From the sequence record LC739537.1: a DNA stretch of 64,000 nucleotides. One strand, written 5' to 3'. This document shows, piece after piece, positions 16,445 to 57,779 of the stretch (position 1 is the stretch's first letter; each line of letters begins with the position of its first letter). The notes below the pieces were generated by a model, which saw only the letters and a list, made by a program, of their open reading frames with translations, was not told the origin of the DNA and did not search any database. The translations under genes and the position numbers were made by a program. Source of the stretch: Escherichia phage phiWec188.

Positions 16445-16708
16445 CTAAATAAGATCTGTGAAGTAGTGAATAACTTCAATATTATGGAAAAGCGTTTTAC
16501 GCTCTTTTGTGTATTCTGTTGTCGTGACAGTCACCTTAGCCACCCCAAAATCTTTCATAGGGAACGTGGGTGCCTCTTTCAGAATATTCTGTACTGTTTG
16601 AATGGCTTCAAATTCTGTCTCCCAATAACTGAAGTAACCTTCGTCGTCCGTGACGAGATTCCTGCCTTCCAAGTTCACGAAACAATAAAACTCTCGCGGT
16701 GTTGTCAT
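16445..16708 (-). CDS. hypothetical protein
   Basis: 87 aa ORF; ATGA overlap with upstream small gene. Confidence 0.5.
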   Translation of the reverse strand: MTTPREFYCFVNLEGRNLVTDDEGYFSYWETEFEAIQTVQNILKEAPTFPMKDFGVAKVTVTTTEYTKERKTLFHNIEVIHYFTDLI

Positions 16709-16863
16709 TCCACCTTCTCCAGAGCTTTCTTGAAGAATGTGGCATGTAATAGATGACCCTCTGCATCAAACCATGTCACTTTACAGGAGTCCCCGTAGTC
16801 CTCTGTGACGGTCATGATAACGGCTTCCCCACGTAAGGTTACAACATCACCTACTGTAATCAT
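16705..16863 (-). CDS. DUF2158-like small protein (52 aa, not in ORF track)
   Basis: MITVGDVVTLRGEAVIMTV...CKVTWFDAEGHL matches the DUF2158/YodC pattern; aggagg RBS; fills gap between 16708 and 16860. Confidence 0.45.
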   Translation of the reverse strand: MITVGDVVTLRGEAVIMTVTEDYGDSCKVTWFDAEGHLLHATFFKKALEKVE

Positions 16864-17306
16864 AAATCCTCCGGTGTGCCAGCACGTAAAGCAGCTAAAG
16901 GTTCAGCCACAGCTTCCAGGGCAGCTTCAATCTGATCTTCAATCACATCACGAACCATTGCAATACGCTCATCGATATGCACAACGAAAGCATCGTTATA
17001 AGCACCAACTAACGTATTGTAAAATGTTTCTTGTGCGCTTAACGCGCCACTAAGAATGAAATTACGTTGATCTTCAGGTAGTTGTTGGTGCTCTTCATAT
17101 TTGGCAAACGTTTCACGGTTGATTTCCAACAGAGTCCCCATCATAAGGTCAAACTGCAACTCTTTGTCTGAGGGATTTCCCATTACAATGGTATTGTAAA
17201 TGTTCAGCAAGCTGGTGCTAACACGAGCATTGTTTTCTACACCTTCCATCTGACGGAAAATAGTTAACACATCAATAGTTTCTTCAATCTTTTCGTTTTG
17301 GTTCAT
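16860..17306 (-). CDS. hypothetical protein
   Basis: 148 aa ORF; gagga RBS. Confidence 0.55.
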   Translation of the reverse strand: MNQNEKIEETIDVLTIFRQMEGVENNARVSTSLLNIYNTIVMGNPSDKELQFDLMMGTLLEINRETFAKYEEHQQLPEDQRNFILSGALSAQETFYNTLVGAYNDAFVVHIDERIAMVRDVIEDQIEAALEAVAEPLAALRAGTPEDL

Positions 17307-17484
17307 ATACGTTCTCCTCTATCATTGGAAGATATCCTGTAGTTTTACAGGGATTGCACTCATAAAGCTGGCCTACATCAACCATAACGTAGCCTAAACC
17401 TCCACAATATGGACACTCCATAGGGGTACAAGGCACAGGTGTTGTTGTGGTTACATCTGCAACACAGGCAATTCTCATTCCCAT
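17284..17484 (-). CDS. small Cys-rich protein (CPYCGG...CNPC)
   Basis: 66 aa ORF with two CxxC pairs. Confidence 0.45.
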   Translation of the reverse strand: MGMRIACVADVTTTTPVPCTPMECPYCGGLGYVMVDVGQLYECNPCKTTGYLPMIEENVYEPKRKD

Positions 17485-17726
17485 TCTCCTATAAGCTGGG
17501 GATTCAAGGCGAATTGTGACATACGTTCAGTGGGAGAGTATAAGTACGGAGGTGTAATTTGCTCCAACACCTTAGCTGCACGTACCTCATCTTCCACTCC
17601 AATATGAAGCCCACGCTCCATAGTTAATACACCATGATCGTTAAGAAGGAATAGAGATTCTACCCCATCCACCTTATCAATTGCAACATAAAGTTTAGTC
17701 ATATTGTCTCCGTTACCATTCGGCAA
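17475..17726 (-). CDS. hypothetical protein
   Basis: 83 aa ORF. Confidence 0.45.
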   Translation of the reverse strand: MPNGNGDNMTKLYVAIDKVDGVESLFLLNDHGVLTMERGLHIGVEDEVRAAKVLEQITPPYLYSPTERMSQFALNPQLIGEWE

Positions 17727-18018
17727 TCAGTTGAGGTTTGACAGCAAAAGCTTGAAAGGTAGTAATATCGTAAAGAAAAACATTATCCAATTCCTTAAGT
17801 TTAGCCGTCATGCCAGCTTTAGTTTCTCCGTCCCACGGGAAGATAGCAACACCATGTTCCCCGACCAACCACCAGTGATAATTGCCGTCACGAAGATCTT
17901 TTGCTTTATAAAGATAATTAGTAATCATTGCCACATTTCTCCCATCTTTGCATCGCCTGTAACCAGCCCTCGGCTCTTTCCCTGGTTTCGAAGTAGACAG
18001 GAATACCCGTCCCTGCAA
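17713..18018 (-). CDS. hypothetical protein
   Basis: 101 aa ORF. Confidence 0.45.
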   Translation of the reverse strand: MQGRVFLSTSKPGKEPRAGYRRCKDGRNVAMITNYLYKAKDLRDGNYHWWLVGEHGVAIFPWDGETKAGMTAKLKELDNVFLYDITTFQAFAVKPQLIAEW

Positions 18019-18119
18019 ATGTGACCCACCAAGTGAAGATCCACCAACCTGTTTTTATGCGATATCCTGTTTCATATTCGACCACTTTCATGAGTCACCT
18101 TTAAAATCGTCTCACTATA

Positions 18120-18362
18120 TCATTTACTATGTGCGTCTGTCAAGTTTTTCTTAGGGAAGAAGAGATCGCAATGATGGATGTAGAAGAGTTCCACCAAAGC
18201 TGCCTCCCTGTACGACAAACACTGCTCATACAATTGTTGTTCTTTATCTGCCGTCATGTTGTTAAGTCTTATCGCTCCGAAGAACACCAAGAGGAAAATA
18301 CAGAATGCAACTATGACTGCTTGTAACCATTCTTTCACGATGTAACTCCAAAGTTTAGACAT
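18120..18362 (-). CDS. small membrane protein
   Basis: 80 aa ORF with hydrophobic segment AVIVAFCIFLLVFFGAI; aggag RBS. Confidence 0.45.
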   Translation of the reverse strand: MSKLWSYIVKEWLQAVIVAFCIFLLVFFGAIRLNNMTADKEQQLYEQCLSYREAALVELFYIHHCDLFFPKKNLTDAHSK

Positions 18363-18421
18363 GCCTTCTCCTGTTATTTTACATTAAAGCCTGGGTAACA
18401 ACCATCAGACAAATCTTAGTA

Positions 18422-18586
18422 TCATCTTATGGCTACAAGATAGAAACATAGAACACACCCAACCACACTTACTAAGAAACTAACATAAACAACAAGCTTG
18501 TTATCGTCCACAATAGCCACAGCTAATGCGGCAGATGTTACCACGAAAAGAACCATCAGCAGAATATCCCTGTTTACTACATCCAT
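18422..18586 (-). CDS. small membrane protein (54 aa, not in ORF track)
   Basis: ATG 18586 preceded by aagaggagg; mostly hydrophobic sequence. Confidence 0.4.
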   Translation of the reverse strand: MDVVNRDILLMVLFVVTSAALAVAIVDDNKLVVYVSFLVSVVGCVLCFYLVAIR

Positions 18587-18714
18587 AGACACCTCCTCTT
18601 GTTAGTTACAGAGAGTATAATACCGGAACGTTACGATTACAACTACGAAGAACGGGTGATTTTGATTGATAGGTAGGACTTATCTGAAAGGAATAATTGA
18701 TAGGGAACGCTGTA

Positions 18715-18743
18715 TTGACTTTTGCGAAAAAACATGCTACCCT
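18715..18743 (+). promoter_or_regulatory. promoter-like motif TTGACT-N17-TACCCT with TGc extension
   Basis: Shares TTGACTTT ... ATGCTACCCTA with the site at 56383-56412; lies in a 500-bp non-coding gap. Confidence 0.3.
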
Positions 18744-18872
18744 AAACATATGTTTACGAGCGATAGCGAGTAGTGATTTGTATAGTATTATTGCATGTTA
18801 CTCACGATAGGGAGTAAGCAATGTTAGTGAGGTAGACAGACTATGATCAACCATCTACCTACTAACTATCTA

Positions 18873-19076: not shown

Positions 19077-19354
19077 ACACCTCCTCTGTAAAGTTTGTCT
19101 TCTCGTTTAACTTCAATCTTACCATCCTTGTCTACAAGAATCAACACTGAACATGAGTAATATCCTTCTGCAACAGTCTCGATCTGTTCTTCCAGATCCT
19201 TCGTCAATTCTTCTCCCATAAGATAGAAGGCAAACTTCGTGCAATGTAATAACTCTTCCTTGAAGTTAACCATCTTGTAGATGTTCATCCCAGTCTTATG
19301 TTCATCTACTGTCCAACCGCTTGATCGAAGTCTGACTGCTGCGTTATGTCTCAT
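19073..19354 (-). CDS. hypothetical protein
   Basis: 93 aa ORF. Confidence 0.5.
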   Translation of the reverse strand: MRHNAAVRLRSSGWTVDEHKTGMNIYKMVNFKEELLHCTKFAFYLMGEELTKDLEEQIETVAEGYYSCSVLILVDKDGKIEVKREDKLYRGGV

Positions 19355-19490
19355 CGTCCGTTACCATTCAATTGATCACGTAGCTTTTCTGCATCCCGTT
19401 TCTGTGGAAACGTGGCAACAGAGACATTGAACTCATTAACAACAGAAAAGGACTTATCCAGATTTTCACGGATAGTAAAAGGTTTCTTGC

Positions 19491-19844
19491 TCATAATCTC
19501 CCTCCATCTTTAAGACGACTCTTAACCCAGTGCAGACGATCTGGATCTGTGTGTTGTGAAGCATTTTCCGCATCCAGTAAATAAGACTTTCTTCCGAACG
19601 GATATGTTTCACATAGCTCTGCTTCAATAAACTGATTATACATCTCTTTCATAGTATCTTCGATTAAATACCAGTCACCTTCTGGAAGGTCTAAATCATA
19701 CAACCAATACTCAAGATTGCCACACAAGCCTACAGAAGAGCTAAACACGTCTTCCATAACAAGGCCCGTCTCATCTCGATTTTCAGCCCAAGATAACCAA
19801 GCCTGATAAAAATCTAAAAGCAGTTTACTTGATGCAATCTTCAT
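19491..19844 (-). CDS. paralog family A member 1 (FY-WL-W / GLC-NL / PF / RL-WV family)
   Basis: ORF 19491..19880; shares LLDFYQAWLSW, GLCGNLEYW, YPFG, RLHWVKSRL with eight other ORFs in 19-36 kb. Confidence 0.55.
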   Translation of the reverse strand: MKIASSKLLLDFYQAWLSWAENRDETGLVMEDVFSSSVGLCGNLEYWLYDLDLPEGDWYLIEDTMKEMYNQFIEAELCETYPFGRKSYLLDAENASQHTDPDRLHWVKSRLKDGGRL

Positions 19845-20032: not shown

Positions 20033-20447
20033 AATATTCCTCCAGGAGTTTCTCAATTCTCTGAACGGTCTTAGTATCCCAATAAACCTTCTTAAAGTCA
20101 AGTGTTCCGTGTGCATTTCTTTTTGTTTCGAAGTAATAACCACCTTCGCGCTCCAAGCGATCACGGATCACTTCTATAAGATGATTTTTAGAGTTTTTTG
20201 TCAAGCAATAGTCATACTCTCCTTTTAAGAGATCTATAGAAGGTTGACGGTTATCTCCAACCTGGGAAATCTTCCAGCTAACCAGCGATCCTTGGATACC
20301 AACATCTGTCTGCTTCACAGAGAAGCCTTTTGAACCCCAGCCTCCCAATGTGACCATTGTTAGCGGTTCTCCTGTTAGAGAGCAGCTAAGGGTGTCATTA
20401 CGTGGTCCACCTAAAGTGGAAAACCATTTGAAAATCTTCTTAAACAT
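20013..20447 (-). CDS. hypothetical protein
   Basis: ORF 20013..20486; ATG 20447 preceded by gaggag. Confidence 0.5.
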   Translation of the reverse strand: MFKKIFKWFSTLGGPRNDTLSCSLTGEPLTMVTLGGWGSKGFSVKQTDVGIQGSLVSWKISQVGDNRQPSIDLLKGEYDYCLTKNSKNHLIEVIRDRLEREGGYYFETKRNAHGTLDFKKVYWDTKTVQRIEKLLEEYYDSKLS

Positions 20448-20473
20448 TTTATGCTCCTCTCGTTCAACATGCA

Positions 20474-20504
20474 CAAACAATAACACCCTCCGAAGAGGGT
20501 GTCA
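20474..20504 (-). terminator. intrinsic terminator (minus strand)
   Basis: Minus strand reads acaccctcTTCGgagggtgttattgtttg. Confidence 0.55.
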
Positions 20505-20508
20505 ATGA

Positions 20509-20718
20509 TTACTCGATCACAAAAAACGTAGCATTCAAACGTCTGAATGTCGCAGGGCTATATCCGTGATCACACTCTTCAATGAACTGATCTGTAGTCT
20601 GATCGTAACTATAATACTGATCATTTTGGAAATGGAAGGACGCACAGAACAAATCATCTCCTACAGTCCACACTGCCACAAAGTTCTTACCGAACGGATA
20701 ACCTTCAACTGCTTTCAT
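20509..20718 (-). CDS. hypothetical protein
   Basis: ORF 20509..20736; ATG 20718 preceded by gaggaggg. Confidence 0.5.
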   Translation of the reverse strand: MKAVEGYPFGKNFVAVWTVGDDLFCASFHFQNDQYYSYDQTTDQFIEECDHGYSPATFRRLNATFFVIE

Positions 20719-28728: not shown

Positions 28729-28809
28729 TTAAACCTCCTACTCGTACATTAAGAAACCTAAAATAATAATCAGGACAACGAAAATAATAGTCTCTATCAT
28801 ACCACATTC

Positions 28810-29022: not shown

Positions 29023-29185
29023 TTCCTATCCTTCTGCTTGATTAATTAATTCTTTACACCTTAAGGCAAACTCTCGTGTAGACTGGAAGTGGACGTAAGC
29101 TGTTGACCACTTTTGGAGTTCTTCTCTACCAAGGGCTATCAACTCTTTATCTGTAAGTTTCATAGCTTCTTGTACTGTCATCGCG

Positions 29186-30235: not shown

Positions 30236-30543
30236 TGGTTTTCTCCTTTTTCTAAGTGGTTTCTTACCCAAGCAATACGATTAAGGTCAAGGTGCATGTT
30301 GTTTTGGTCCAAACATAAATCAAAAGCTTCTTCCCCGAAAGGATAGGCAGCAGAGAGTCCCGCATCTTCAAACTGATCGGCAAGTTGACGCTCTAAGCGA
30401 GTAAGTATCGAGATATTGTCAGCGCCAGTGTAATATCGAAGATTGCTACACAGCCCTACACCACGGGAGAAAGGTCGGTAAGGCGGAGCGCCATTATCTA
30501 ACCAATCTGCGTATGCCTTGTAATACCCTTCTAATGTTTTCAT
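30232..30543 (-). CDS. paralog family A member 7
   Basis: YYKAYADWLDNGAP, GLCSNLRYY, YPFG, RIAWVRNHL; ATG at 30543. Confidence 0.55.
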   Translation of the reverse strand: MKTLEGYYKAYADWLDNGAPPYRPFSRGVGLCSNLRYYTGADNISILTRLERQLADQFEDAGLSAAYPFGEEAFDLCLDQNNMHLDLNRIAWVRNHLEKGENQ

Positions 30544-30698
30544 AACCACCCCTTATCTTGATAACCTTTAGAAAACCCTTCTTCCCACTCTTGAAACTTT
30601 TCAGGATGTTTATTGGGATCGTAAGGATTGTGGCGGCAAAACATACCGAATTTATAACCCTGTGCGTAGCCTTTATCGAATGCGTTCTTACTCTCCAT
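30540..30698 (-). CDS. small hypothetical protein (52 aa, not in ORF track)
   Basis: ATG 30698 preceded by gaggagaga; stop overlaps family A member 7 start (ATGA). Confidence 0.4.
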   Translation of the reverse strand: MESKNAFDKGYAQGYKFGMFCRHNPYDPNKHPEKFQEWEEGFSKGYQDKGWL

Positions 30699-30710
30699 TG
30701 TTCTCTCCTC

Positions 30711-30983
30711 TTATTCAACGTTCCAGAAAACACCACGTTTGTCTGTAATGTCTATATGATACTCCTCCCACATCTTAGTTACAAGAGGTCTTTCCACATA
30801 ACCATGAAAATAAACTTCAGAATGCACCCCGTAAGCTGTGTAATTGTCAACAGTCCCTTCTACCTTGAAGATCACCATGTCCCCACCTAAAAATCTTTCA
30901 AAGACCAAGGTGAAACAGTCGAACTTAACAACGTCTCCCTCGAAGAGGGAGATATCTTTCACCTTACAGAAATGTCCGATCAT
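30711..30983 (-). CDS. hypothetical protein
   Basis: 90 aa ORF; aaggagag RBS. Confidence 0.5.
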   Translation of the reverse strand: MIGHFCKVKDISLFEGDVVKFDCFTLVFERFLGGDMVIFKVEGTVDNYTAYGVHSEVYFHGYVERPLVTKMWEEYHIDITDKRGVFWNVE

Positions 30984-35557: not shown

Positions 35558-35814
35558 TTATCATTGGTATTCCCTATCAATTATTCCATATATACCTGTT
35601 ATTTTTGACACCCCTTTGGTCAAATATTAATCGGCAAAATATCTGGGGGGAGAGATTATTTCGATACCCTCTGTTCCTGCGATTTATCGGCAAGAATATC
35701 ATCGGCAAAGAGACAGAAAAGCCTTTGGTAGCAAGGATTTATGGCGAGTACGTCAGGACTGCTGAACGCGAATTTTCCGGCCCCTCCACTTCTGCGCGCC
35801 GGAATCTTCAAATA

Positions 35815-36020
35815 TCAATGAGAATAATTATCATTATCATTCGCATTCAATAACTTAGGCGATCTTTTCCCCTGCTATAAGGTTGGGCCTAACTTAAGCA
35901 CTACTTTTTAAACAATCCTTTATCAATCAACTACTTAACAACCTAAACATATGATTACTACGGTGTAAAGGTGCCGCCCATAACAGACTACCTATAAAAT
36001 AAATGAGAATGATTATTATT
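35815..36020. repeat. two copies of a TGAGAAT-N-ATTCTCA-type palindrome (Fur-box-like)
   Basis: atgagaataattatcattatcattcg near 35817 and aatgagaatgattattattc near 35998; same motif recurs six times at 48.85-49.07 kb. Confidence 0.45.
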
Positions 36021-36317
36021 CAGACAATTCTTACAACAAATCGACCAATAAATCAAGATTTTTCTGATTTTATTTACGTTTAAGAGAACGTGCTCAACAT
36101 ATCCGCCATAGGCGGCTATCTTTCCCCCGCAAACATTAAGCCTTTATCTTTCATCTTTCTGTATATCTGTACACTATGCAACCTGTCGCTATTCGCTCAT
36201 GTTGCTACGTGCTAATCCTTCACCATGCTAATGATGATCACACTGAACGATAGTGATAACTCATGTAATAATTACATTGATTATTATATTACGCTTAACT
36301 ATTCTTACATACAATGC

Positions 36318-36440
36318 TAATAATAAGCCAGCGTAATTAGTGTAAGCGTAATACGCTTGCAATAATTGCAAGCTACATAATCACAAGAAATAACTATCAC
36401 CGATAGTTATGATTGTGGGGGTGTAGTTGGCTTATTATTA
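36318..36440. repeat. large imperfect palindrome with a perfect 19-bp core
   Basis: gcttgcaatAattgcaagc (36355-36373) flanked by inverted 11-mers aataataagcc / ggcttattatt about 110 bp apart. Confidence 0.5.
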
Positions 36441-36519
36441 GCTCGCTACGTGTCCGGCGTAGCGTGCTAATGATGAGGCTTGGAATGATTCATTTTACAA
36501 TTATTACAGTCTTCACTAT

Positions 36520-36990
36520 TTCGGCAATAGGCACTATTTTACTAATAGTTGTTATTTTAATGATTTCATTTGTTATCGTTAGTTAGTTGGTTGTTTTGTC
36601 GTGTTATCGTTATCTTGCTTAGTATTCATCATGGTTTGATTGTTTGTCGTTATCAATCATCTTTCTATTATTCCTTTGATTATGATTAGTTTGCTTATTG
36701 TTTTAGGTTGTTGGTTGGTTAGTTGTTGCGAACTATTATCAACATTATAGTTATGCACTTATATTGCATAGATACGCAAGGTTAGATGATAATGGTTATC
36801 ATTGCACTGGAAAGGAGGAAAACAGCCTTTTTCGGTTGTTTGTTGTTGGTTGTTGATCGATTTTAACCGCTCTAAATAGCTCTCTAACAGCCTGTTGCCC
36901 TGGGAGGTATGGTTATTCGTTTGCTGGTTGATTAGCTCGATACCGCGATTTATTCATTTTTGTTCTGTGTCGGTTTTTCATAGGCGGAAG
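36520..36990. repeat. G+T-rich low-complexity region with iterated gttatcgtt / ttggttgtt motifs
   Basis: Plus strand almost devoid of C/A runs; repeated gttatcgtt, ggttggtt; no ORF of 60 aa or more across 35.85-36.9 kb. Confidence 0.5.
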
Positions 36991-37009
36991 CTATCAACAT
37001 TATTTGGAC

Positions 37010-37040
37010 AAAAAGAAAGGGCGCTTAGTGCGCCCCTTGT
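37010..37040 (-). terminator. intrinsic terminator (minus strand)
   Basis: Minus strand: ggggcgcACTAAgcgccc then tttcttttt; just 3' of gene 37052..37471. Confidence 0.7.
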
Positions 37041-37051
37041 TTTGTTGTCGA

Positions 37052-37471
37052 TTATAAAGCTTCATAGATTGAGTATATCCGGTTCGCCAGGTCATTACGA
37101 AAGCGGAATTTTTCATCACGTTTAATCATCAGATCCTTAAAACCGCATTCTTTCAATGCTTCGTTAACTTTACTGCGGCATACTTTCATATTGTCCTGCG
37201 CGTCACCAATAAACTTATTGCTATGATGCATTGCTTTGATCTCTTCTTCCAGGACCAGGGCAACTACACGGATCGGATCAAGCTGATACGCGGTAACATC
37301 CATGCGGCATTGTAAACGGCTTTTAACGTCTGCCACCGGATATACTGCAACCTCTTCCCCGTCAACGTTCACGATAACCAGTTTACCATCAATTTCGAAG
37401 CCTTTAGCGGCGCTACCGTGACAAAAAGCGTTGTCGAAGGAGTAAGCTGGATTATTTGATTTAATGTTCAT
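37052..37471 (-). CDS. hypothetical protein
   Basis: 139 aa ORF; aaggacaacacc ATG context. Confidence 0.55.
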   Translation of the reverse strand: MNIKSNNPAYSFDNAFCHGSAAKGFEIDGKLVIVNVDGEEVAVYPVADVKSRLQCRMDVTAYQLDPIRVVALVLEEEIKAMHHSNKFIGDAQDNMKVCRSKVNEALKECGFKDLMIKRDEKFRFRNDLANRIYSIYEAL

Positions 37472-37577
37472 GGTGTTGTCCTTTGTTTCGTTTCGTTGTT
37501 TGCTGCCAGTGAGTTAAATATAATATAACGCCGATCCCCTGTCAATAGGGGATAGCGCATTATTTACATTTCTTTAC

Positions 37578-38309: not shown

Positions 38310-38370
38310 GACGGGAAACATTCCCGCCCTACGTGATAAATAATAATATAAGCGTGATCCGGTGTCAATA
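38310..38370 (-). promoter_or_regulatory. promoter plus 5' hairpin cassette (copy 1 of 24)
   Basis: Minus strand: TTGACA, 17 bp, TATTAT, then cgggaaTGTTtcccg hairpin, then RBS/ATG of 38058..38291. Confidence 0.5.
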
Positions 38371-38542
38371 GGTAGAATTGTAAAGATTTGATAGTTTATC
38401 TCTTTGATGTTTTGTTGTTTGATAGGTGTTAGCTATCAATATATAGCGGGGTCGTCCGGTGATTACCTCCCCCGTTGCCAGTGCCGCCCGTTCAATAAGC
38501 ATAACAAAAAACAGGACAAAAACAAGCCCTGTTTTGTAAAGA

Positions 38543-39035: not shown

Positions 39036-39170
39036 TTAAAACCAGGTGCCAACCGTTTCCAATAGGTCACTGACTACCAGAACAACACCGATTAGCACAT
39101 ATTTAACCAGGAAGGGGATTAGCGCCAGCGTTGCTACTATGATCCCCATTGTCATGATTACCTTTCTCAT
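39036..39170 (-). CDS. small membrane peptide (44 aa, not in ORF track)
   Basis: Hydrophobic (GIIVATLALIPFLVKYVLIGVVLVV); start overlaps stop of 39167..39457 (ATGA). Confidence 0.35.
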   Translation of the reverse strand: MRKVIMTMGIIVATLALIPFLVKYVLIGVVLVVSDLLETVGTWF

Positions 39171-39457
39171 TGTTGGCGGTTTACGTAAGCTTTACCGTTT
39201 ACGGTCATCGGTATGGCCTCAAGGTCTGGATCTTCCTTAAGGTCGCGTGCAAGCTCACCGCACCGGACACCCTCGAATCCGTGGTATTCTGTTTCCCCGT
39301 CCTTAAAAGTTTTAGCGGCAAGGCATAGGCGATAATTAACCCCGATCCGGTTTACTGCGTTGATATCGGTTAACGTGATCGATTCAGGCAAATCGTTAGC
39401 CATTACAGGCGCGTTAATACCAACAACCAGGGCAACTACTGCGATCATCTTTTTCAT
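39167..39457 (-). CDS. small secreted protein (signal peptide)
   Basis: MKKMIAVVALVVGINAPVMA signal-peptide-like N-terminus; 96 aa. Confidence 0.5.
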   Translation of the reverse strand: MKKMIAVVALVVGINAPVMANDLPESITLTDINAVNRIGVNYRLCLAAKTFKDGETEYHGFEGVRCGELARDLKEDPDLEAIPMTVNGKAYVNRQQ

Positions 39458-40848: not shown

Positions 40849-40953
40849 TTAACCGATACCGTGAGAAGATAGGATCATATTAGCCATAGTTGCAACCACT
40901 CCAACCGATAACGCCAGGCCAACTATTGCAACCGTGAAAATTTTCTCTAACAT
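40849..40953 (-). CDS. small membrane peptide (34 aa; start uncertain)
   Basis: ORF 40849..41052; ATG 40953 preceded by gaggg and located after the hairpin element. Confidence 0.3.
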   Translation of the reverse strand: MLEKIFTVAIVGLALSVGVVATMANMILSSHGIG

Positions 40954-41036
40954 GATGCTACCCTCTTTAATGGGCGTTGCCTTATTGCCCCGCCCTACGT
41001 GATACACTTTACCAGAAAACAAAATACTGTCAAGAT

Positions 41037-41174
41037 TTATTTTACTTCCCAAACGGAAAATTCACTACCTGGCGGGATCATTCTTTTAATCTTGTTTGCT
41101 GCTGCTACCAGGTCCACGGCTTGCACTGTAATAATATAACCAATTGTCGAGGCTGTTGCATTGAAAGTTTTCAT
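41037..41174 (-). CDS. small hypothetical protein (45 aa, not in ORF track)
   Basis: ATG 41174 preceded by gaggg; cassette hairpin at 41193-41210 just upstream. Confidence 0.35.
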   Translation of the reverse strand: MKTFNATASTIGYIITVQAVDLVAAANKIKRMIPPGSEFSVWEVK

Positions 41175-41232: not shown

Positions 41233-41415
41233 TTACTTTGCTGTTGTCAACAAGGGGCGAAAAAACTTTTTGATCTGGCTTGCTGTTAGGCGCATATCTG
41301 CTTTGAGCGTTGCCAGGCGATAAGCCTTACCCTTAATCAGTTTATGGTGTCCGGTGCCGTTGCCGATGATAACATCAATTTCACACAATACACGGGAAGA
41401 ATCAATCTTTTTCAT
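41233..41415 (-). CDS. hypothetical protein
   Basis: 60 aa ORF. Confidence 0.45.
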   Translation of the reverse strand: MKKIDSSRVLCEIDVIIGNGTGHHKLIKGKAYRLATLKADMRLTASQIKKFFRPLLTTAK

Positions 41416-41463: not shown

Positions 41464-41649
41464 TTATTTGACTATGTGACGATCATTATATTCAGTGTAA
41501 AACTCGCAACCATCGTCACGACTATCAAGTTTAACAATGTAACCAGTTTGATAACGTTCAATAGATACCATTGCATAAAACTTACCATTCAGGATATTTC
41601 TAACCAGATCGCCTTTTACCAATTCTTTCGTTTTCTTGTAAGTAGTCAT
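41464..41649 (-). CDS. hypothetical protein
   Basis: ORF 41464..41700; ATG 41649 downstream of hairpin. Confidence 0.5.
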   Translation of the reverse strand: MTTYKKTKELVKGDLVRNILNGKFYAMVSIERYQTGYIVKLDSRDDGCEFYTEYNDRHIVK

Positions 41650-41669
41650 GATGTTTTCTCTTCTGTTAG

Positions 41670-41726
41670 GCGGGGCGCTTGTCGCCCCTATGTGATACAT
41701 CTTATCAGGTTGATTCAGCTTGTCAA
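41670..41726 (-). promoter_or_regulatory. promoter plus 5' hairpin cassette (stem variant ggggcg/cgcccc)
   Basis: TTGACA, spacer, TGATAAGAT, then ggggcgACAAGcgcccc hairpin. Confidence 0.5.
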
Positions 41727-41727
41727 A

Positions 41728-41907
41728 CTATTTGTTAGCCGGATTATATGCCAGGACCGCGCCACTTGCTTTCACGCTTTCCGCTTCATAGTTGCGCAGA
41801 TCGTTTTCTGTAAGATTGAGCGCGATCACTTCCTCGATCTCAATACCAGTGGCAAGGGCGATCTCTTTAATGATGTTTGATGATCTGATAACGTTTACTG
41901 TTTTCAT
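41728..41907 (-). CDS. hypothetical protein
   Basis: ORF 41728..41964; ATG 41907 chosen (MKTVNV...). Confidence 0.45.
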   Translation of the reverse strand: MKTVNVIRSSNIIKEIALATGIEIEEVIALNLTENDLRNYEAESVKASGAVLAYNPANK

Positions 41908-41917: not shown

Positions 41918-42037
41918 TTATAAGATGATTGATAAGATAGTGATAACGAAAGCGATAACACCAACGGCGATCGTAGTCTTACGCCCTTCGGATACTGCCG
42001 GATTCTCTACCGTGTATTCTACTGTGTATTTGTTCAT
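41918..42037 (-). CDS. small membrane peptide (39 aa, not in ORF track)
   Basis: ATG 42037 preceded by gagagga; C-terminal TM segment IAVGVIAFVITILSII. Confidence 0.3.
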   Translation of the reverse strand: MNKYTVEYTVENPAVSEGRKTTIAVGVIAFVITILSIIL

Positions 42038-42713: not shown

Positions 42714-42745
42714 TAAGAAAGGGCGCTATTTGCGCCCTTGTTTTG
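42714..42745 (-). terminator. intrinsic terminator (minus strand)
   Basis: gggcgcAAATAgcgccc hairpin with flanking A/T runs; third copy of this terminator type. Confidence 0.5.
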
Positions 42746-42892
42746 TTAGTCTTCCAGGTCCAGCCATGCACGTTTATCGGTGCGGTCGCGCTTAGTCTTG
42801 TTGCGCTTGTCGCCCTTGCGGACCACTTCTTCATTCCACGCTGCGCGAGTTTTGGAAGATTGGATTTTTTCGGCGCGATTAGATGTATTCAT
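42746..42892 (-). CDS. small basic protein (48 aa, not in ORF track)
   Basis: ATG 42892 preceded by agagga and the cassette at 42914-42972; replaces shadow plus ORF 42743..42982. Confidence 0.4.
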   Translation of the reverse strand: MNTSNRAEKIQSSKTRAAWNEEVVRKGDKRNKTKRDRTDKRAWLDLED

Positions 42893-42913
42893 GATGTTTC
42901 CTCTTTTTGTTGT

Positions 42914-42972
42914 GAGCGGCACCATTGCCGCCCTACGTGTTTAAATTTACTTTATTGTTTGATGCCTGTCAA
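42914..42972 (-). promoter_or_regulatory. promoter plus 5' hairpin cassette
   Basis: TTGACA ... -10 ... ggcggcAATGgtgccgc. Confidence 0.5.
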
Positions 42973-42988
42973 CTACTTTTAAAACTTT

Positions 42989-43721: not shown

Positions 43722-43889
43722 TTATTTGTTACGGCTTAACGTGCCCAAGTTATCAGCATGACGCAGACCAGGGAAGATCCACGCGCCTGATGTATCTTTT
43801 ACAGGGGCTTTAAGCGTAGCGCCCAGGTTGGCGGCGTTAACTTTACGTGCAACGTTGCGAGCGGCTTCACGGGTAGTAAAAGTAATCAT
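43722..43889 (-). CDS. small hypothetical protein (55 aa, not in ORF track)
   Basis: ATG 43889 preceded by agaggaaaa; hairpin variant ggcggtgg..ccgccgcc upstream. Confidence 0.4.
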   Translation of the reverse strand: MITFTTREAARNVARKVNAANLGATLKAPVKDTSGAWIFPGLRHADNLGTLSRNK

Positions 43890-45386: not shown

Positions 45387-45566
45387 TTAACGATAATCAT
45401 TATAGGCTTGATTGACCTGACGAATGTAACATTCGAAAGCAAGATCAATATATTCGTATTCATGCACATAATCCCCATAGGTTACTACATACATTCCTAA
45501 CGTTTCCTTATATGTCAGAAGAATGGAATCTAAGCCCACGATTTCAGTTTTTGCAATGATAGCCAT
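45387..45566 (-). CDS. small hypothetical protein (59 aa, not in ORF track)
   Basis: ATG 45566 located after cassette hairpin 45588-45605. Confidence 0.4.
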   Translation of the reverse strand: MAIIAKTEIVGLDSILLTYKETLGMYVVTYGDYVHEYEYIDLAFECYIRQVNQAYNDYR

Positions 45567-45587: not shown

Positions 45588-45644
45588 GGCGGCACCATTG
45601 CCGCCCTACGTGATAAACTATAACAGAATTTTAAACAGTGTCAA
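45588..45644 (-). promoter_or_regulatory. promoter plus 5' hairpin cassette
   Basis: TTGACA, spacer, TAGTTTATCAC -10 region, then ggcggcAATGgtgccgcc. Confidence 0.5.
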
Positions 45645-46283: not shown

Positions 46284-46475
46284 TTATAGAATGACTACGT
46301 TATCTTTTTCGTGCAATGTGGCGGTAATGTTACGCCCCTTGTTGCAAGTTAGCGAGATCTTGCGGTGATGCGGTGGCACTTTTTCAATGTGCGCTACTGT
46401 CATTGTGATCCGGTGCAATTCTACCTTGTCACCTGCTTTCAATGTTGCTACGTTGCCAGTGATATTTTTAAACAT
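46284..46475 (-). CDS. hypothetical protein
   Basis: 63 aa ORF. Confidence 0.45.
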   Translation of the reverse strand: MFKNITGNVATLKAGDKVELHRITMTVAHIEKVPPHHRKISLTCNKGRNITATLHEKDNVVIL

Positions 46476-46485: not shown

Positions 46486-46596
46486 TTACTTGAAAATGAT
46501 TGTTGTGATAACTGCTACGGTGATCCAAAATGGAACAACCAAGATAATAGCGTTAATCGTTCCAACTGTCAAACTGTTTTCTTTCTTGATCATCAT
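46486..46596 (-). CDS. small membrane peptide (36 aa; start uncertain)
   Basis: ORF 46486..46716 trimmed to ATGATG at 46596; a second 27-aa hydrophobic ORF (46604..46687) lies just upstream. Confidence 0.3.
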   Translation of the reverse strand: MMIKKENSLTVGTINAIILVVPFWITVAVITTIIFK

Positions 46597-46761
46597 GTTT
46601 TCCTTACAGTGTCCAAAGAATGATTTCAAGTGCAGCACGGAAACCAGGAATAAAATTGATTGCAAAAAACAGGGAAGTAGTAAACATTTTTCTATCCTTT
46701 CGGTTGTGAGCGGCACCGTTGCCGCCCTATGAGTTAACTATAAGTGATCACGTTTTACCTG

Positions 46762-48740: not shown

Positions 48741-48847
48741 ATATTTGTAAAGAAATGTAAAGATAAAATAATCGCTTGCTTTCCTGGCTGGATCTGTTAT
48801 TCTTATTACATGGCGAGGGGACACGGGAGCGCGAGATAATCACCGGA

Positions 48848-49070
48848 CCTGCCCGTCATTCTCTAAATGAGAATGATTATCATTTACCTTATTGAATAAA
48901 AATCAATCTTATTTGGATAGTTGAATGAGAATCAATCTCATTCGCAAGGTGAGAATAAATCTCATTTACGCTATTGAATGCGAATCATTCGTATTTACCA
49001 TGTTAAATGAGAATCATTATCATTCTCATTCGTATTTCGATTTTAAGTGAGAATAATTCTCATTTCGGTA
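48848..49070. repeat. six tandem copies of the TGAGAAT-N-ATTCTCA palindrome (Fur-box-like)
   Basis: aatgagaatgattatcattta, aatgagaatcaatctcattcg, ggtgagaataaatctcattta, aatgcgaatcattcgtattta, aatgagaatcattatcattctcattcg, agtgagaataattctcatttcgg. Confidence 0.55.
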
Positions 49071-49080
49071 ATTTTCACGC

Positions 49081-49330
49081 AAACTTTAGAATTTGCTTTT
49101 CAACTTTCACTTTTGTAAAAGCAAAAAAACTTTAAATACCTGGTGCGCGCGACTTTTTTAAAAATTTTTCTCGGTTTTTTGTTTTGCAATCTGGTCCACC
49201 CATTTGAGATAATGTGTGTAAACTTTAGAATTTGGTTTTGGATTCTCGTTTTTGTAAACTCATAAAAAGTTTAAATAATTGTAGGGATTTTTGAGATAGT
49301 TTGCTTGTAAGATTTGAGATAATCTTTCCT
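49081..49330. repeat. direct repeats (about 40 bp, two copies) plus three tttgagata motifs
   Basis: aaactttagaatttgcttttcaactttcacttttgtaaaagc (49081) versus aaactttagaatttggttttggattctcgtttttgtaaactc (49224); tttgagata at about 49203, 49291, 49313. Confidence 0.5.
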
Positions 49331-49517
49331 GAAGATGCTACGCAGCCTACAACCTACCTGAATGCTCGTCTAACGAGGTTAACTCTAAAAGATGAGTGTT
49401 GGTGTAGCTAAAGAGAAAAAGGCTCTCTACGGAGGTTGTAGGAGCCTTTTTCTGTGGCACAAAGTTGACGTATTCTTTTTAAAAACGAATTTTTTCAAAA
49501 TATCACGAATATCGCCT

Positions 49518-52224: not shown

Positions 52225-52386
52225 TTATTCCAACAACATACACAATGCAGCTACAACCAAGAACAGAGTAGCCACGCTTAAAGCGATAAACATTCCTAAT
52301 TGAGAATGAAATTCGCCTATGATAGGTGCAGACAACGCACTTAGCAAACAACCTGTCAAACTTGATTTGATAATAAGATCTAACAT
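52225..52386 (-). CDS. small membrane protein (53 aa, not in ORF track)
   Basis: ATG 52386 preceded by gtaggaggta; two hydrophobic stretches; replaces Cys-rich shadow ORF 52100..52351. Confidence 0.4.
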   Translation of the reverse strand: MLDLIIKSSLTGCLLSALSAPIIGEFHSQLGMFIALSVATLFLVVAALCMLLE

Positions 52387-52993: not shown

Positions 52994-53182
52994 TTAACTA
53001 ATTAGTTGAACTGCCTTGCAGATGTAAATCCAAACAGGACTAAGCATAAGAGCTATACCGAATGTACAAGCCCACTTAATTCCCATATTCTCTATTAGAG
53101 ACATGATTAAGCCAACAGCATTAATAACCAGATAAATCCCTAAGAAAACCACTGTAAAAAATTCAGACATAGTTAGCTCCAC
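52994..53182 (-). CDS. small membrane protein
   Basis: 62 aa, two hydrophobic helices. Confidence 0.45.
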   Translation of the reverse strand: MELTMSEFFTVVFLGIYLVINAVGLIMSLIENMGIKWACTFGIALMLSPVWIYICKAVQLIS

Positions 53183-54681: not shown

Positions 54682-54709
54682 TTGACAAGCTTTTTGGTTC
54701 TGTTATGAT
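54682..54709 (+). promoter_or_regulatory. sigma70 promoter at divergent strand switch (TTGACA-N16-TATGAT)
   Basis: Consensus -35 and good -10, 30 bp upstream of RBS/ATG of 54740..55156. Confidence 0.55.
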
Positions 54710-54739
54710 TAGCTCATACCAAATGAGAGGAGAAAACAA

Positions 54740-55156
54740 ATGCAAAACATCAAACTGACTTGGACCGAAGCTAAAGAAGCAATGAAGGAAGGTAGACGTG
54801 TGGAGCACCGCCATTTTTGTGGTGGCGAATGGTTTGAGATGCGAGATGGTGTTATTCTCGACGAACAAGGTTATAACATGGAAACTTGGTTCAGAGGGGA
54901 AGCTTGGCAGGAAGAGGGTTGGTCTGTAATTGAGGAAGAAGACAATAAGGAAGAACGCGAAATGCGTGAAACAAAGATGCCTGAACTGGACTACCATTGC
55001 CTGGAACTTCTTGTGGCAGCATCTTTCGCTACTGGAGATACAATGTGGCAAACTCCGGTGTCCCGTGTCGATAACCAAAATAAACCGTCTGCCCGTAATC
55101 ACAAGCTTTACAAAGGTAAAGGTCATAACAAACTGAAGAAAGGAAAGAAGAAATGA
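54740..55156 (+). CDS. hypothetical protein with basic C-terminal tail
   Basis: 138 aa; gagaggag RBS; N-terminus LTWTEAKEAMKEGRRV resembles DUF2829-type phage proteins (from memory). Confidence 0.5.
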   Translation: MQNIKLTWTEAKEAMKEGRRVEHRHFCGGEWFEMRDGVILDEQGYNMETWFRGEAWQEEGWSVIEEEDNKEEREMRETKMPELDYHCLELLVAASFATGDTMWQTPVSRVDNQNKPSARNHKLYKGKGHNKLKKGKKK

Positions 55157-55299
55157 TCTACAAAAACAAGTTCACTGGTTGTCTACGTAAGTTTGTCGAT
55201 AAGAAAGGTTATGTTTCGCTTGACAACGGGACTACATGGGTGCAGAATGGGACTTCAGAACAATTGATCAAGGCTCTGCCTTACTACGAGGAGGTTTAA
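55153..55299 (+). CDS. small hypothetical protein (48 aa, not in ORF track)
   Basis: ATGA overlap with upstream stop and TAAATG junction with downstream start. Confidence 0.4.
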   Translation: MIYKNKFTGCLRKFVDKKGYVSLDNGTTWVQNGTSEQLIKALPYYEEV

Positions 55300-55623
55300 A
55301 TGTCCAACAATCTGTTTAGCGTGTCAATCGCACCGCGTGTTAATATTCGCTGCCAGTTTGTTACCTTACCAGGCGTGACACACATTACTTTAGAGTATGA
55401 TCCTCGTTCACGAGAGAACCCAATTACAGGTAAGATTGATTCAGCCTACGGCGACTTCCTGATGGATCACCAAGCGATCTTATGTTGTGTGCAACGCTTA
55501 CAGGCAGGGTCTTTATACATCTTTAAGAAGTCTGTGTTCCAAGAGATTGCTCAAGCAGTTGAAAGCGGTATGGAGACTCTTAACGCTATGATTGAAGCAG
55601 CCAACAAGAAGGAGGTTTTATGA
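55300..55623 (+). CDS. hypothetical protein
   Basis: 107 aa ORF; gaggagg RBS. Confidence 0.5.
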   Translation: MSNNLFSVSIAPRVNIRCQFVTLPGVTHITLEYDPRSRENPITGKIDSAYGDFLMDHQAILCCVQRLQAGSLYIFKKSVFQEIAQAVESGMETLNAMIEAANKKEVL

Positions 55624-55880
55624 CACTTTATCACGTAACTACAGAAGGTGACTGTGAAGGCCGCACTACAAAAGATTTGGGGTATGTTGAAGCAGATTCA
55701 CCTGAACATGCTATCAAATACCTGCATTCCATCGGGAAGTATGCGGGTTATGAGTATACTATCTACGAGGTTGAAATTATTAACCTTATACAAGTGGCAA
55801 CTCCTGTGGCAGAGTTGAAACATCTTAAGGCAAAAGTAAGACCTGGTATAGTGTCCGATTACAAAGGGGAAGTAAAATGA
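55620..55880 (+). CDS. hypothetical protein
   Basis: 86 aa ORF; aaggagg RBS. Confidence 0.5.
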   Translation: MTLYHVTTEGDCEGRTTKDLGYVEADSPEHAIKYLHSIGKYAGYEYTIYEVEIINLIQVATPVAELKHLKAKVRPGIVSDYKGEVK

Positions 55881-56086
55881 GTGGATGGATTAAAGTATCT
55901 GGCACCGAGGATGTTCCTGTCGGAGAGTGGTTTGTAATCATGGCAAACGGTAAGAAGGGATTCTGTGAAGTTAACAAAACACGCAATGGCACGATAGCTG
56001 TTATCAATGGTCATTTTTATTTTGACTTGGCACCTGTGATCGCATATCATGAACTACCAACTTATGAAGAGGAGACTAACAAATGA
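55877..56086 (+). CDS. hypothetical protein
   Basis: 69 aa ORF; ATGA overlap. Confidence 0.5.
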   Translation: MSGWIKVSGTEDVPVGEWFVIMANGKKGFCEVNKTRNGTIAVINGHFYFDLAPVIAYHELPTYEEETNK

Positions 56087-56379
56087 GCCTTACCACTATG
56101 CACAAAACACTGCTCAAACTATTTAACAATCAACGTAATCTTTTGATCGAAGATTTCCGTAGCTTTAAACGTAACAAGATCAATCGTGCCTACATGCCTC
56201 ATTCAGCCTTTGATGCCACGTTAAAAGAGTTTCGTAACCGTATCTCTGAAATGGATGCTTACATCCGTGGCACAAAGCTTGCACGCACAGTAACTATCCA
56301 AACAGGGTTGTTGCACTTTTATGATGGAACTACCGGATCGATCTACAATCCAGACAGCATAGAGAATTATTTAAAATAG
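56083..56379 (+). CDS. hypothetical protein
   Basis: 98 aa ORF; ATGA overlap. Confidence 0.5.
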   Translation: MSLTTMHKTLLKLFNNQRNLLIEDFRSFKRNKINRAYMPHSAFDATLKEFRNRISEMDAYIRGTKLARTVTIQTGLLHFYDGTTGSIYNPDSIENYLK

Positions 56380-56382
56380 TTG

Positions 56383-56412
56383 TTGACTTTGATATACGAA
56401 GTATGCTACCCT
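56383..56412 (+). promoter_or_regulatory. promoter-like motif TTGACT-N18-TACCCT with TGc extension
   Basis: Shares TTGACTTT ... ATGCTACCCTA with the site at 18715-18743; upstream of plus gene 56580..56777. Confidence 0.35.
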
Positions 56413-56579
56413 ACCCACGAAGTGCCGAGCGGGAGCGAGGTATAAGTGTTACCCTCCCGTTAGGGTAGAGGGTAGTAATTATAGTTTCTATCGTTAGATT
56501 GTTCGAAGAACAGAAACTTAGATCTTGTTCTTATCGTTAGATGATCGTAAGATCAAGAACATAATATAGAGGAGGTGCT

Positions 56580-56777
56580 ATGTTAATTAATGGTATACTG
56601 CCCGACTCGAATGGTAATAGGATCACTGTGGATTGGTTCCCTGGGACTGGCGTATTAGATCTTACTGCTGAATGGGCTGGTGATATTTATGGTGAAGGTG
56701 TGCTCTCATTGTCTACAGAACAAATGATTATCCTTCGTGACTTCTTAAACTGTTTAAACTTAGGAGATAAAGAATGA
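56580..56777 (+). CDS. hypothetical protein
   Basis: 65 aa ORF; gaggagg RBS. Confidence 0.5.
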   Translation: MLINGILPDSNGNRITVDWFPGTGVLDLTAEWAGDIYGEGVLSLSTEQMIILRDFLNCLNLGDKE

Positions 56778-57310
56778 AATTGTTAGACTATGCGATGGTT
56801 ATGGATCTTAGTGTGCTTCGTGACGATGCTCAATACATGACACAGAACCAGGATGGCACCTTAAACCTGTATTCTGCCTATCCACGTAATCATGGCCCAG
56901 TTACAACTTACGGTTGGGGTGATAGCAACTTCCTGGATTACTACCCAGCGCCACGTAGCTTGGAAACTGCTGAAGATTGGTTCCACTCTATTATCAACTT
57001 GCAAGCAATCCGTGACTACCAAGAGAGTGGGTCAGATAGCAACCTGGCAAATACATTGGGAACATTGAATACCATCTCTTACACAGAGAAGCCACCTAAG
57101 CTTTACTTCCTGCGGGATATTCCAGAAGGCACTTTCTTTGTCTATGGCGGTGCTGACGCTTCTGGTGAGCCTCCTATCTGGCAGAAAGTAGATGGCGGTT
57201 TAGCAGTTATGTTTGATACGGGGATCACTTCTCCGCAAGATACCTTCTCTCAAGATCGTGTGTGGAAAATCTTGAAAGCGCATCTGACTGTCAGCCCTAT
57301 CCGAGAATAA
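56774..57310 (+). CDS. hypothetical protein
   Basis: 178 aa ORF; ATGA overlap. Confidence 0.55.
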   Translation: MKLLDYAMVMDLSVLRDDAQYMTQNQDGTLNLYSAYPRNHGPVTTYGWGDSNFLDYYPAPRSLETAEDWFHSIINLQAIRDYQESGSDSNLANTLGTLNTISYTEKPPKLYFLRDIPEGTFFVYGGADASGEPPIWQKVDGGLAVMFDTGITSPQDTFSQDRVWKILKAHLTVSPIRE

Positions 57311-57388
57311 TCTTAATCTGCAAATAAGTCTTGATCACGAGGTTGTATTCTGATAGAATGCAATCTCACTAAACAAAAGGAGATTTAA

Positions 57389-57586
57389 ATGGCTACGAAG
57401 AAACAAAAAATGAAATGTCTGTCACTGACTCAACTGGGGCACAGTGCAGGTTGTGTGACGATCGGTAAAACCTACTCTACCACTTTGAATAAAGAGAACA
57501 ATAGCTTTACATTCAAAGATGACAATGGTAATATGCAGGTGGGGATTTACCCTGAGTGTGCATTCGGCACTTGGGAAAAAGTGTAA
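57389..57586 (+). CDS. hypothetical protein
   Basis: 65 aa ORF; aaggag RBS. Confidence 0.5.
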   Translation: MATKKQKMKCLSLTQLGHSAGCVTIGKTYSTTLNKENNSFTFKDDNGNMQVGIYPECAFGTWEKV

Positions 57587-57605
57587 TTAACTGATCGGAG
57601 GGAGT

Positions 57606-57779
57606 ATGCAAGACAAGAAAAATAATGTTCGTTATGCTTTGTACGGACGTATGGGCGTAGACTGCGAATGGAGACTTCTGTTACAGCGTATTCCCTCTTA
57701 TCAAGAAGCTATGACGAAGCGAGAATATTACAAGAAGACGTGGAGACACGTTGTTTGCAAACATTACGAGGAGGCATAA
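57606..57779 (+). CDS. small basic protein (57 aa, not in ORF track)
   Basis: ATG 57606 preceded by ggaggg; stop overlaps ATG of next gene (TAATG); contradicts N-terminal part of track ORF 57668..58087. Confidence 0.45.
   Translation: MQDKKNNVRYALYGRMGVDCEWRLLLQRIPSYQEAMTKREYYKKTWRHVVCKHYEEA

Follow-up and report, generated by a model that had tools for sequence, protein, structure and literature searches.

The stretch of 64,000 nucleotides (nt) from Escherichia phage phiWec188 analyzed here (sequence record LC739537.1), called the window below, carries fifteen short open reading frames (ORFs) of fewer than 60 codons. A first-pass annotation had claimed that at least a dozen plausible genes of this size were missing from the ORF track of the window, and these fifteen are absent from it because the track stops at 60 codons (60 amino acids, aa). 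Eight of them lie in an array of small genes on the minus strand, where about 18-20 copies of a promoter-hairpin cassette are found between 38300 and 48228. The cassette consists of TTGACA-N16/17-TAnnnT, 7-8 nt, a TAGGG-stem-loop, an AG-rich Shine-Dalgarno (SD) sequence and an ATG. By megablast, the window belongs to the genus Phapecoctavirus (Stephanstirmvirinae, rV5-like coliphages). The record of phage phiWec190 (LC739539.1) is ~100% identical to it, in opposite orientation and circularly permuted, while phiWec179, phiWec181, phiWec186 and the 'Pseudomonas' phage PsgM04F show ~94% identity, and phAPEC8, ESCO13, Schickermooser, tuntematon and DE16 show 83-89% over alignable parts. Such annotated GenBank records were used for comparison, since a scan of IMG/VR for related loci gave one contig. 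The coding strand is plus to ~14.9 kb, minus to ~48.3 kb, minus again at 49.4-54.6 kb and then plus. On the evidence given below, which is that of sequence comparison, the fifteen frames are very probably real small protein-coding genes of a Phapecoctavirus coliphage.

Each of the fifteen runs exactly from an ATG to a stop over 27-59 codons and lies on the strand that is coding locally: plus for those beginning at 2002, 55153 and 57606, minus for the other twelve. Good ribosome-binding sites and ATGA coupling had been claimed for them and were found, with SD cores (AGGAGG, GAGGA, AAGGA and similar) 5-10 nt upstream of fourteen. ATGA overlaps occur at 16863, 16705, 30540, 39170 and 55153, a TAATG overlap at 57779, and the stops of 39036, 41918, 46486, 46604 and 52225 are embedded in the SD site of the next gene. 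Several hydrophobic single-pass peptides had also been announced; hydropathy gives one transmembrane (TM)-like segment each in 39036, 41918 and 46486, two in 18422 and one or two in 52225, and 46604 is hydrophobic.

Coding was supported for fourteen of the fifteen. Wherever a relative has one of these fourteen (up to seven relatives, 47-98% aa identity), the frame is unbroken, without indels and unchanged in length. The conservation check proposed by the first-pass annotation was run as Nei-Gojobori counts of synonymous and non-synonymous differences in all six frames of the homologous regions from seven relatives, and it was favorable for fourteen: the proposed frame has the lowest or tied-lowest ratio of non-synonymous to synonymous differences (pN/pS, range 0.04-0.49). 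The only near-competitor is the antisense frame sharing the wobble positions, and that frame has stops. Codon usage was scored as log-odds; 75 long genes from the window served for training, and 134 off-frame ATG-ORFs (stop-free, 25-60 codons) as the null. All fifteen fall in the top 4% of this null except 39036-39170 (8%), and all score in the in-frame range but this same ORF, which lies in the lowest few percent of in-frame windows. Full-length PHROG matches (hmmscan) were obtained for twelve (E 1e-9 to 1e-36) and not for 18422-18586, 46486-46596 and 46604-46687. Two are above the curated cut-offs of Pfam, 16705-16863 as DUF2158 and 42746-42892 as the T7 gp1.1 family. Finally, in the 9.8 kb left free by longer ORFs (at least 60 aa) of the coding strand, this strand has 11 SD-bearing ATG-ORFs of at least 27 aa and the opposite one none, against 2.1 +/- 1.4 (maximum 8) in 500 dinucleotide shuffles. 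Therefore, the pattern of short ORFs is real and not due to chance.

Chance ORFs in intergenic spacers or in 5' or 3' untranslated regions, conserved through regulatory DNA or RNA elements and not through translation, would be very short, as these frames are. The cassettes themselves are highly conserved non-coding sequence, a sigma-70-like site (11/12) falls within 46486-46593, and the PHANOTATE-type annotation of PsgM04F does include spurious small ORFs, for example 37468-37560. However, the synonymous excess is confined to the proposed frame in 14 ORFs, indels are absent up to 50% aa divergence, codon usage is set apart from that of off-frame ORFs, the strand asymmetry is 11:0, and the leader at 46570-46731 has no structure beyond its cassette hairpin (z = -0.31). 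We regard this explanation as highly improbable and treat the frames as genes. Two other candidates were rejected: 37468-37560 (30 aa, annotated in PsgM04F only; pN/pS 3.2, null-like codon usage) and 38365-38502 (45 aa; pN/pS 0.73, no SD site, null-like codon usage).

Seven of the genes lie outside the array. On the plus strand, 2002-2151 encodes a small basic/acidic protein of 49 aa from an ATG with a GGAG SD site. It is annotated in phiWec190 (BDU13658.1) and phAPEC8 (G377_gp171) and matches phrog_14981 (E 8e-35). Compared with phAPEC8 and DE16 it shows 13 synonymous and 3 non-synonymous differences (pN/pS 0.06, the lowest of six frames), and no null ORF is as high as its codon-usage score of 0.37. 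The 52-aa product of 16705-16863 (minus strand; BDU13626.1), ATGA-coupled on both sides, had been described as DUF2158-like. This was borne out by PF09926 (26.8 bits, gathering cut-off 22.3, E 4.4e-6, profile positions 2-47 of 50), and there is a match to phrog_3261 too; the DE16 homologue is named 'DUF2158 domain-containing protein'. Its pN/pS is 0.04 against close relatives; against phAPEC8, pN is 0.26 and pS 0.77. The gene 18422-18586 (minus; BDU13619.1) encodes 54 aa with two TM-like segments behind an AGGAGG SD site. Its frame, unbroken in PsgM04F (80% aa identity) and phiWec181, has the lowest pN/pS (0.26).

A hydrophilic protein of 52 aa is encoded at 30540-30698 (minus; BDU13871.1; phrog_26347, E 3e-21), with the downstream gene ATGA-coupled to it. 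Against DE16 and phAPEC8 its pN/pS is 0.24-0.26, while the other frames give 0.40-1.78, a frame specificity by which the overlapping 80-aa GTG ORF 30494-30736 was rejected. The hydrophobic 53-aa protein of 52225-52386 (minus; BDU13814.1; phrog_27459) also has an AGGAGG SD site; it shares 47-62% aa identity with its indel-free homologues, and its frame is the lowest in pN/pS (0.40-0.49). Homologues of 30540-30698 and 52225-52386 are adjacent in phAPEC8 (20300-20638 of the compared region), Schickermooser and DE16 but 22 kb apart in the window, and therefore one of them has been relocated or duplicated.

Two plus-strand genes are paralogues, both matching phrog_2381: 55153-55299 (48 aa, ATGA-coupled; BDU13805.1; E 3e-10, pN/pS 0.14) and 57606-57779 (57 aa, basic, with a TAATG overlap to the next gene; BDU13797.1; E 3e-19, pN/pS 0.23). 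The N-terminal part of the track ORF 57668-58087, which overlaps the second paralogue, had been judged a probable artefact, and it is one. The pN/pS of its first 37 codons (57668-57778, plus) is 2.07, as compared with 0.19 when this stretch is read in the frame of 57606-57779. The alignment of phrog_7812 begins at residue 38, the ATG at 57779, and the GenBank start is 57779 as well.

All short genes of the array are on the minus strand. The claim that they stand behind the promoter-hairpin cassette holds for six of eight (those starting at 41174, 42037, 42892, 43889, 45566 and 46687) and fails for those starting at 39170 and 46593, which are second cistrons. At 39036-39170 there is a 44-aa single-pass hydrophobic peptide gene without an SD site, ATGA-coupled to the upstream gene 39167-39457. 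It matches phrog_16005 (E 1e-26), is intact with its ATG in 7 of 7 relatives and occurs in 69 phage records; its pN/pS of 0.35 is tied with that of the antisense wobble frame, which holds stops. It is without annotation in phiWec190, annotated in PsgM04F (135 bp) and annotated in a 114-bp version in phAPEC8 and DE16. The 45-aa protein of 41037-41174 (BDU13846.1; phrog_29854, E 3e-36) is the first cistron behind a cassette that starts at 41250, and shows 7 synonymous and 2 non-synonymous changes (pN/pS 0.08). Also behind a cassette is 41918-42037 (39 aa; BDU13839.1; phrog_10979, pN/pS 0.39), with a C-terminal TM-like segment at residues 23-39; its homologues are named 'membrane protein' in PsgM04F, phAPEC8, Schickermooser and tuntematon.

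Around 42746-42892, promoter, hairpin, SD site, ORF and terminator make up a unit complete in itself. The 48-aa basic product of this gene (net charge +5, GRAVY, the grand average of hydropathy, -1.78) belongs to the T7 gp1.1 family. It matches PF08200 (Phage_1_1) over positions 2-39 of the 40-position profile with 45.9 bits (E 7.7e-12; cut-off 21), as well as phrog_2490, and is annotated as BDU13836.1. With 86 synonymous and 62 non-synonymous differences its pN/pS is 0.18. The cassette is at 42972 and the terminator at 42739-42719, so that the unit is monocistronic. A 59-aa reading, 42746-42925, was rejected in favor of this one. Antisense to the gene and its cassette runs the TTG ORF 42743-42982 of the plus strand, suspected to be an artefact from the beginning. 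It is frameshifted in PsgM04F and in the IMG/VR contig, its codon usage equals that of the off-frame null, and it has no PHROG or Pfam match and no annotation in any record examined.

Two further proteins of the array are 43722-43889 (55 aa, basic; BDU13833.1), behind a cassette variant (TTGCAA-N16-TAAACT, then the hairpin), which matches phrog_13689 (E 2e-32) and is intact in 7 of 7 relatives with pN/pS 0.23, and 45387-45566 (59 aa, acidic; BDU13828.1), with its cassette at 45644, phrog_9374 (E 2e-34) and pN/pS 0.20. Searches of PDB sequences with 16705-16863, 42746-42892 and 57606-57779 gave nothing significant, and tRNA and Rfam family searches of the window gave no matches.

The two shortest frames are neighbors at 46.5-46.7 kb. 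For the one given as 46486-46596, the gene stood and the start did not: the first ATG is ATC or ACA in relatives, whereas the second, at 46593, is conserved. The gene is thus 46486-46593, encoding a 35-aa single-pass hydrophobic peptide one codon shorter than proposed. Its frame has the lowest pN/pS (0.24), and it is present in 108 phage records including phi92; it is without annotation in phiWec190 and phAPEC8 and a 96-bp coding sequence (CDS) in Schickermooser, tuntematon and DE16. The sigma-70-like site within it (46544-46572, minus; TTGACA-17-TATTAT) lies upstream of 46284-46475; it could be a promoter internal to the gene, or have arisen by chance.

Upstream, 46604-46687 is a hydrophobic ORF of 27 codons, the first cistron behind its cassette. 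Its ATG stands in the cassette register behind an AAAGGA SD site, and a single one of the 134 null ORFs has a higher score for codon usage (p ~0.007). By tblastn (E up to 10) it was found in only five near-identical records, with a single substitution (F2S); the phAPEC8 clade has another copy of the cassette in place of both the segment and the cassette before it. It is the only one of the fifteen with no annotation in any record examined. Register, SD site and codon usage together make it a probable gene. A reading of this segment as a structured leader was dropped, as the fold of 46570-46731 yields only the cassette hairpin.

In PsgM04F the locus is annotated as a single 231-bp ORF (46486-46716, minus), which would make one GTG-initiated gene of 76 aa in place of two tiny ones. 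No stop interrupts this ORF in the window or in phiWec190, phiWec181 and PsgM04F, and the few substitutions in its N-terminal part are mostly synonymous (pooled, 5 against 1 non-synonymous, from ~3 independent events). The GTG, however, falls within the 5' hairpin, ~10-15 nt from the predicted transcript start and with no SD site; a 1-nt insertion in the IMG/VR contig breaks the long frame and spares both small ORFs; and in the phAPEC8 clade the 31-35-aa gene stands by itself, immediately after a cassette of its own. In codon usage the N-terminal part (46597-46716) resembles the null, 62% of whose ORFs reach its score or exceed it, and in four other genes the PHROG profiles place the true start downstream of an in-frame ATG of the hairpin loop. 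The single long gene is consequently very unlikely in our judgment, and 46597-46716 is treated as an artefact.

A stronger objection to two genes is that 46604-46687 is no gene but leader sequence brought in by a cassette insertion, with 46486-46593 alone translated from the transcript. The frame is limited to the five near-identical records, its sole substitution is non-synonymous, it has no PHROG match, and it is missing in the phAPEC8 clade, whose cassette borders directly on the gene downstream. On the other hand, 46604-46687 has its ATG and SD site in the register shared by the leading genes behind 17 other cassettes, a codon-usage score that just 1 of 134 null ORFs reaches, and a stop embedded in the SD site of the next gene, as at other coupled junctions. 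We consider the leader explanation unlikely, though to be taken seriously, and keep 46604-46687 as a probable gene.

The cassette was held by the first-pass annotation to be independent evidence of expression, and as far as sequence can show, this is so: ATGs stand in a fixed register behind ~18 units. Fold energies of the hairpins are -12 to -17 kcal/mol, and their stems vary with compensating changes (GCGGCA/TGCCGC, GCGGGAA/TTCCCGC, GGGGCG/CGCCCC). In an independent consensus scan, 21 of the 22 strongest sigma-70-like sites were on the minus strand, and 45 sites were found against 28.4 +/- 4.7 in shuffles. After the stems comes ACAAC or AG-rich sequence and no T-run, and the terminator scan caught other hairpins and not those of the cassettes.

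Two further observations bear on the repeated cassette. First, the hairpin loop holds ATGGTG, and an in-frame ATG at this site is taken as the start by both the ORF track and the GenBank CDS of phiWec190 (minus strand: 38779, 42451, 44224 and 47898; also 42925 and 41700). In four genes the PHROG profiles begin 10-12 residues further on, at the cassette-register ATGs 38746, 42421, 44191 and 47862. Judged by these alignments, the hairpin-loop starts are a systematic N-terminal over-extension, common to the ORF track and GenBank. Second, the window differs from phiWec190 by a deletion of ~800 bp in which three CDSs are lost (window 41645-41697; LC739539.1 129070-129974). The deletion has its ends in copies of the promoter-hairpin cassette, here a direct repeat of 53 nt, and looks as if one cassette had recombined with another in the manner known from promoter-early stem-loop (PeSL) elements, discussed below.

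Eight further genes below 60 codons, all on the minus strand, are annotated or supported, which brings the total to ~23 in 64 kb. Best conserved among its neighbors by far is 40849-40953, a 34-aa single-pass hydrophobic peptide behind a cassette, hidden in the 67-aa TTG ORF 40849-41052 of the track. Positions 1-34 of phrog_14631 align to residues 34-67 of the long ORF. The gene is intact in all relatives fetched (pN/pS 0.11-0.35) and occurs in 166 phage records, with 91-97% identity over 150+ Phapecoctavirus and Justusliebigvirus records. It is without annotation in about half of the sampled records, phiWec190 included. A 57-aa protein with a CxxC motif is encoded at 15508-15681 (BDU13629.1; phrog_10623, E 8e-32; pN/pS 0.10 against DE16), given by the track in a 67-aa GTG version, and a 33-aa peptide at 15737-15838 (AGGAG SD site; phrog_11666; pN/pS 0.14-0.16), which is annotated in phAPEC8, DE16 and PsgM04F but not in phiWec190. 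The gene 19351-19494 (47 aa; BDU13616.1; phrog_27860; pN/pS 0.22) has 4-nt overlaps with both neighbors.

Others of these eight are 41728-41907 (59 aa; BDU13840.1; phrog_35944; pN/pS 0.07-0.65), present in the track as a 78-aa TTG version, and 52994-53170 (58 aa, two TM-like segments; BDU13811.1; phrog_22639, E 4e-35; pN/pS 0.37-0.81), present as a 62-aa GTG version. The 51-aa protein of 29026-29181 (BDU13877.1; GAGGA SD site; codon-usage p ~0.02) appears lineage-specific, as it gave neither a PHROG match nor a homologue among the fetched relatives. Annotated but weakly supported is 17918-18091 (57 aa; BDU13621.1), with no PHROG match and a sole relative found that differs by one non-synonymous change. 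In addition, the 81-nt space separating two genes is filled exactly by a hydrophobic ORF of 20 codons at 28738-28800 (minus; MIETIIFVVLIIILGFLMYE), whose stop falls in the next SD site. PsgM04F and phiWec181 carry it unbroken with 3 aa changes, evidence too thin for a gene call.

The small-gene array is flanked by ORF-free stretches at 35558-37051 and 48751-49517. Both contain copies of a 19-bp palindrome, AATGAGAATnATTmTCATT, 11 in all, at 35817-36803 and 48866-49064 (0.22 matches expected). It resembles the E. coli Fur box GATAATGATAATCATTATC, with the best site at 35820-35838 (2 mismatches, 0 matches expected). From their sequence, the palindromes could be host Fur sites, operators of a phage regulator or origin iterons. 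The records labeled Pseudomonas phage PsgM04F, Acinetobacter phage ABPW7 and ~20 'Campylobacter phage' are 84-94% identical to these coliphages, which suggests mis-assigned hosts or contamination in public records.

The finding that the track misses these genes is correct and already known, as nearly all of them are in public records of phiWec190 and its relatives. The phiWec190 record has the same genes, 12 of the 15 already as CDS features for hypothetical proteins. It leaves 39036-39170 and 46486-46593 without annotation, and these two are supplied by PsgM04F, phAPEC8, DE16, Schickermooser and tuntematon; 14 of the 15 are annotated in at least one relative. Start choice varies between records (114 or 135 bp for 39036-39170; 96 or 231 bp at 46486). 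The promoter-hairpin element is not new either: in the phAPEC8 record of 2012 its promoter part appears as 'MEME host-dependent promoter' and a 20-mer of the hairpin as 'PHIRE promoter'.

By analogy, the closest described counterpart of the cassette is the PeSL, described with ORFan cassettes in the T4-type phages RB49 and phi1 (Arbiol et al. 2010, PMC2839356). Both combine a repeated, strong sigma-70-like promoter with a GC-rich stem-loop and end in an SD site and ATG, before small orphan genes in a plastic region. In both, indels between close relatives are bounded by the repeats, here the ~800-bp deletion and the cassette replacement at 46.6 kb. One subclass of PeSLs likewise has its stem-loop downstream of the -10 box (PMC2839356). 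However, the window comes from an unrelated lineage (Stephanstirmvirinae, not T4-type Straboviridae), and the resemblance is one of analogy and not of membership. Furthermore, the stem-loop has a uniform position here, inside the predicted transcript and with no U-tract, and it is therefore unlikely to be a terminator as shown for PeSLs.

The gene 42746-42892 resembles T7 gene 1.1 in being small, very basic and encoded in an early-type unit, but it is found in a large myovirus and in a monocistronic promoter-to-terminator unit, not in a T7 class I/II early operon. The function of the T7 gene 1.1 family is unknown (PMC7064336). In phage rV5, '88 mainly small ORFs' lie beside a 2.6-kb ORF-free stretch, and E. 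coli-type (sigma-70-type) promoters are spread across the genome (Kropinski et al. 2013, PMC3606486). The array of the window adjoins ORF-free stretches of 1.5 kb and 0.8 kb in the same layout. It differs in that rV5 is of another genus and only some small genes are common; 40849-40953 is 56% identical in Vequintavirus-type records.

These observations suggest a mechanism in which each gene or gene pair of the array would form its own transcription unit with a near-consensus host sigma-70 promoter. A stem-loop would be placed at about +5 to +25 of the transcript, followed by the AG-rich SD site and the ATG at a fixed distance, and may serve for mRNA stabilization or the binding of a regulator. 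Second cistrons would be translated by coupling, through the ATGA overlap or a stop within the next SD site. Outside the array, small genes are packed by ATGA and TAATG overlaps in what would be long operons. Host RNA polymerase would transcribe the array immediately after infection. The products would be accessory early proteins, about one third of them small membrane peptides, one of the T7 gp1.1 family and one of DUF2158, whose targets might be host physiology or competing phages. As homology patches, the repeated cassettes may also serve for gene gain, loss and exchange.

Some points weigh against this picture and the gene calls beneath it. Early timing, membrane localization and host-directed function are read from promoter type and composition only; a literature search found no transcriptomic study of Phapecoctavirus infection. 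Among the genes, 39036-39170 and 41918-42037 tie in pN/pS with the antisense wobble frame, and 39036-39170 has the weakest codon-usage score of the set, a marginal one (p ~0.08). The sole substitution in 46604-46687 is uninformative: it is non-synonymous when read in this frame, and silent when read in the 76-aa one. The pooled substitution counts share branches between relatives, and thus give direction only and are no independent tests.

A bolder proposal is that 46604-46687 is a new lineage-restricted micro-gene of 27 aa that came in with a cassette exchange, and that at least nine tiny hydrophobic peptides, including the 34-aa peptide of 40849-40953, are cassette-shuffled, membrane-acting early effectors of host takeover, superinfection exclusion or anti-defence. 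We hold this to be speculative and, as a whole, doubtful.

In a phage genome of this kind, a cut-off of 60 codons hides roughly one gene in eight, a problem largely handled by gene callers and public annotation since phAPEC8 (2012). The shortest genes are annotated inconsistently between records, as for the 34-aa peptide found in 166 of them and the 35-aa peptide found in 108. The fixed register of the cassette can be used for picking true starts, and exposes GenBank CDSs over-extended from the hairpin-loop ATG. The small, putatively early proteins of these coliphages are candidates for host-takeover or anti-defence screens, in which their roles may be sought.

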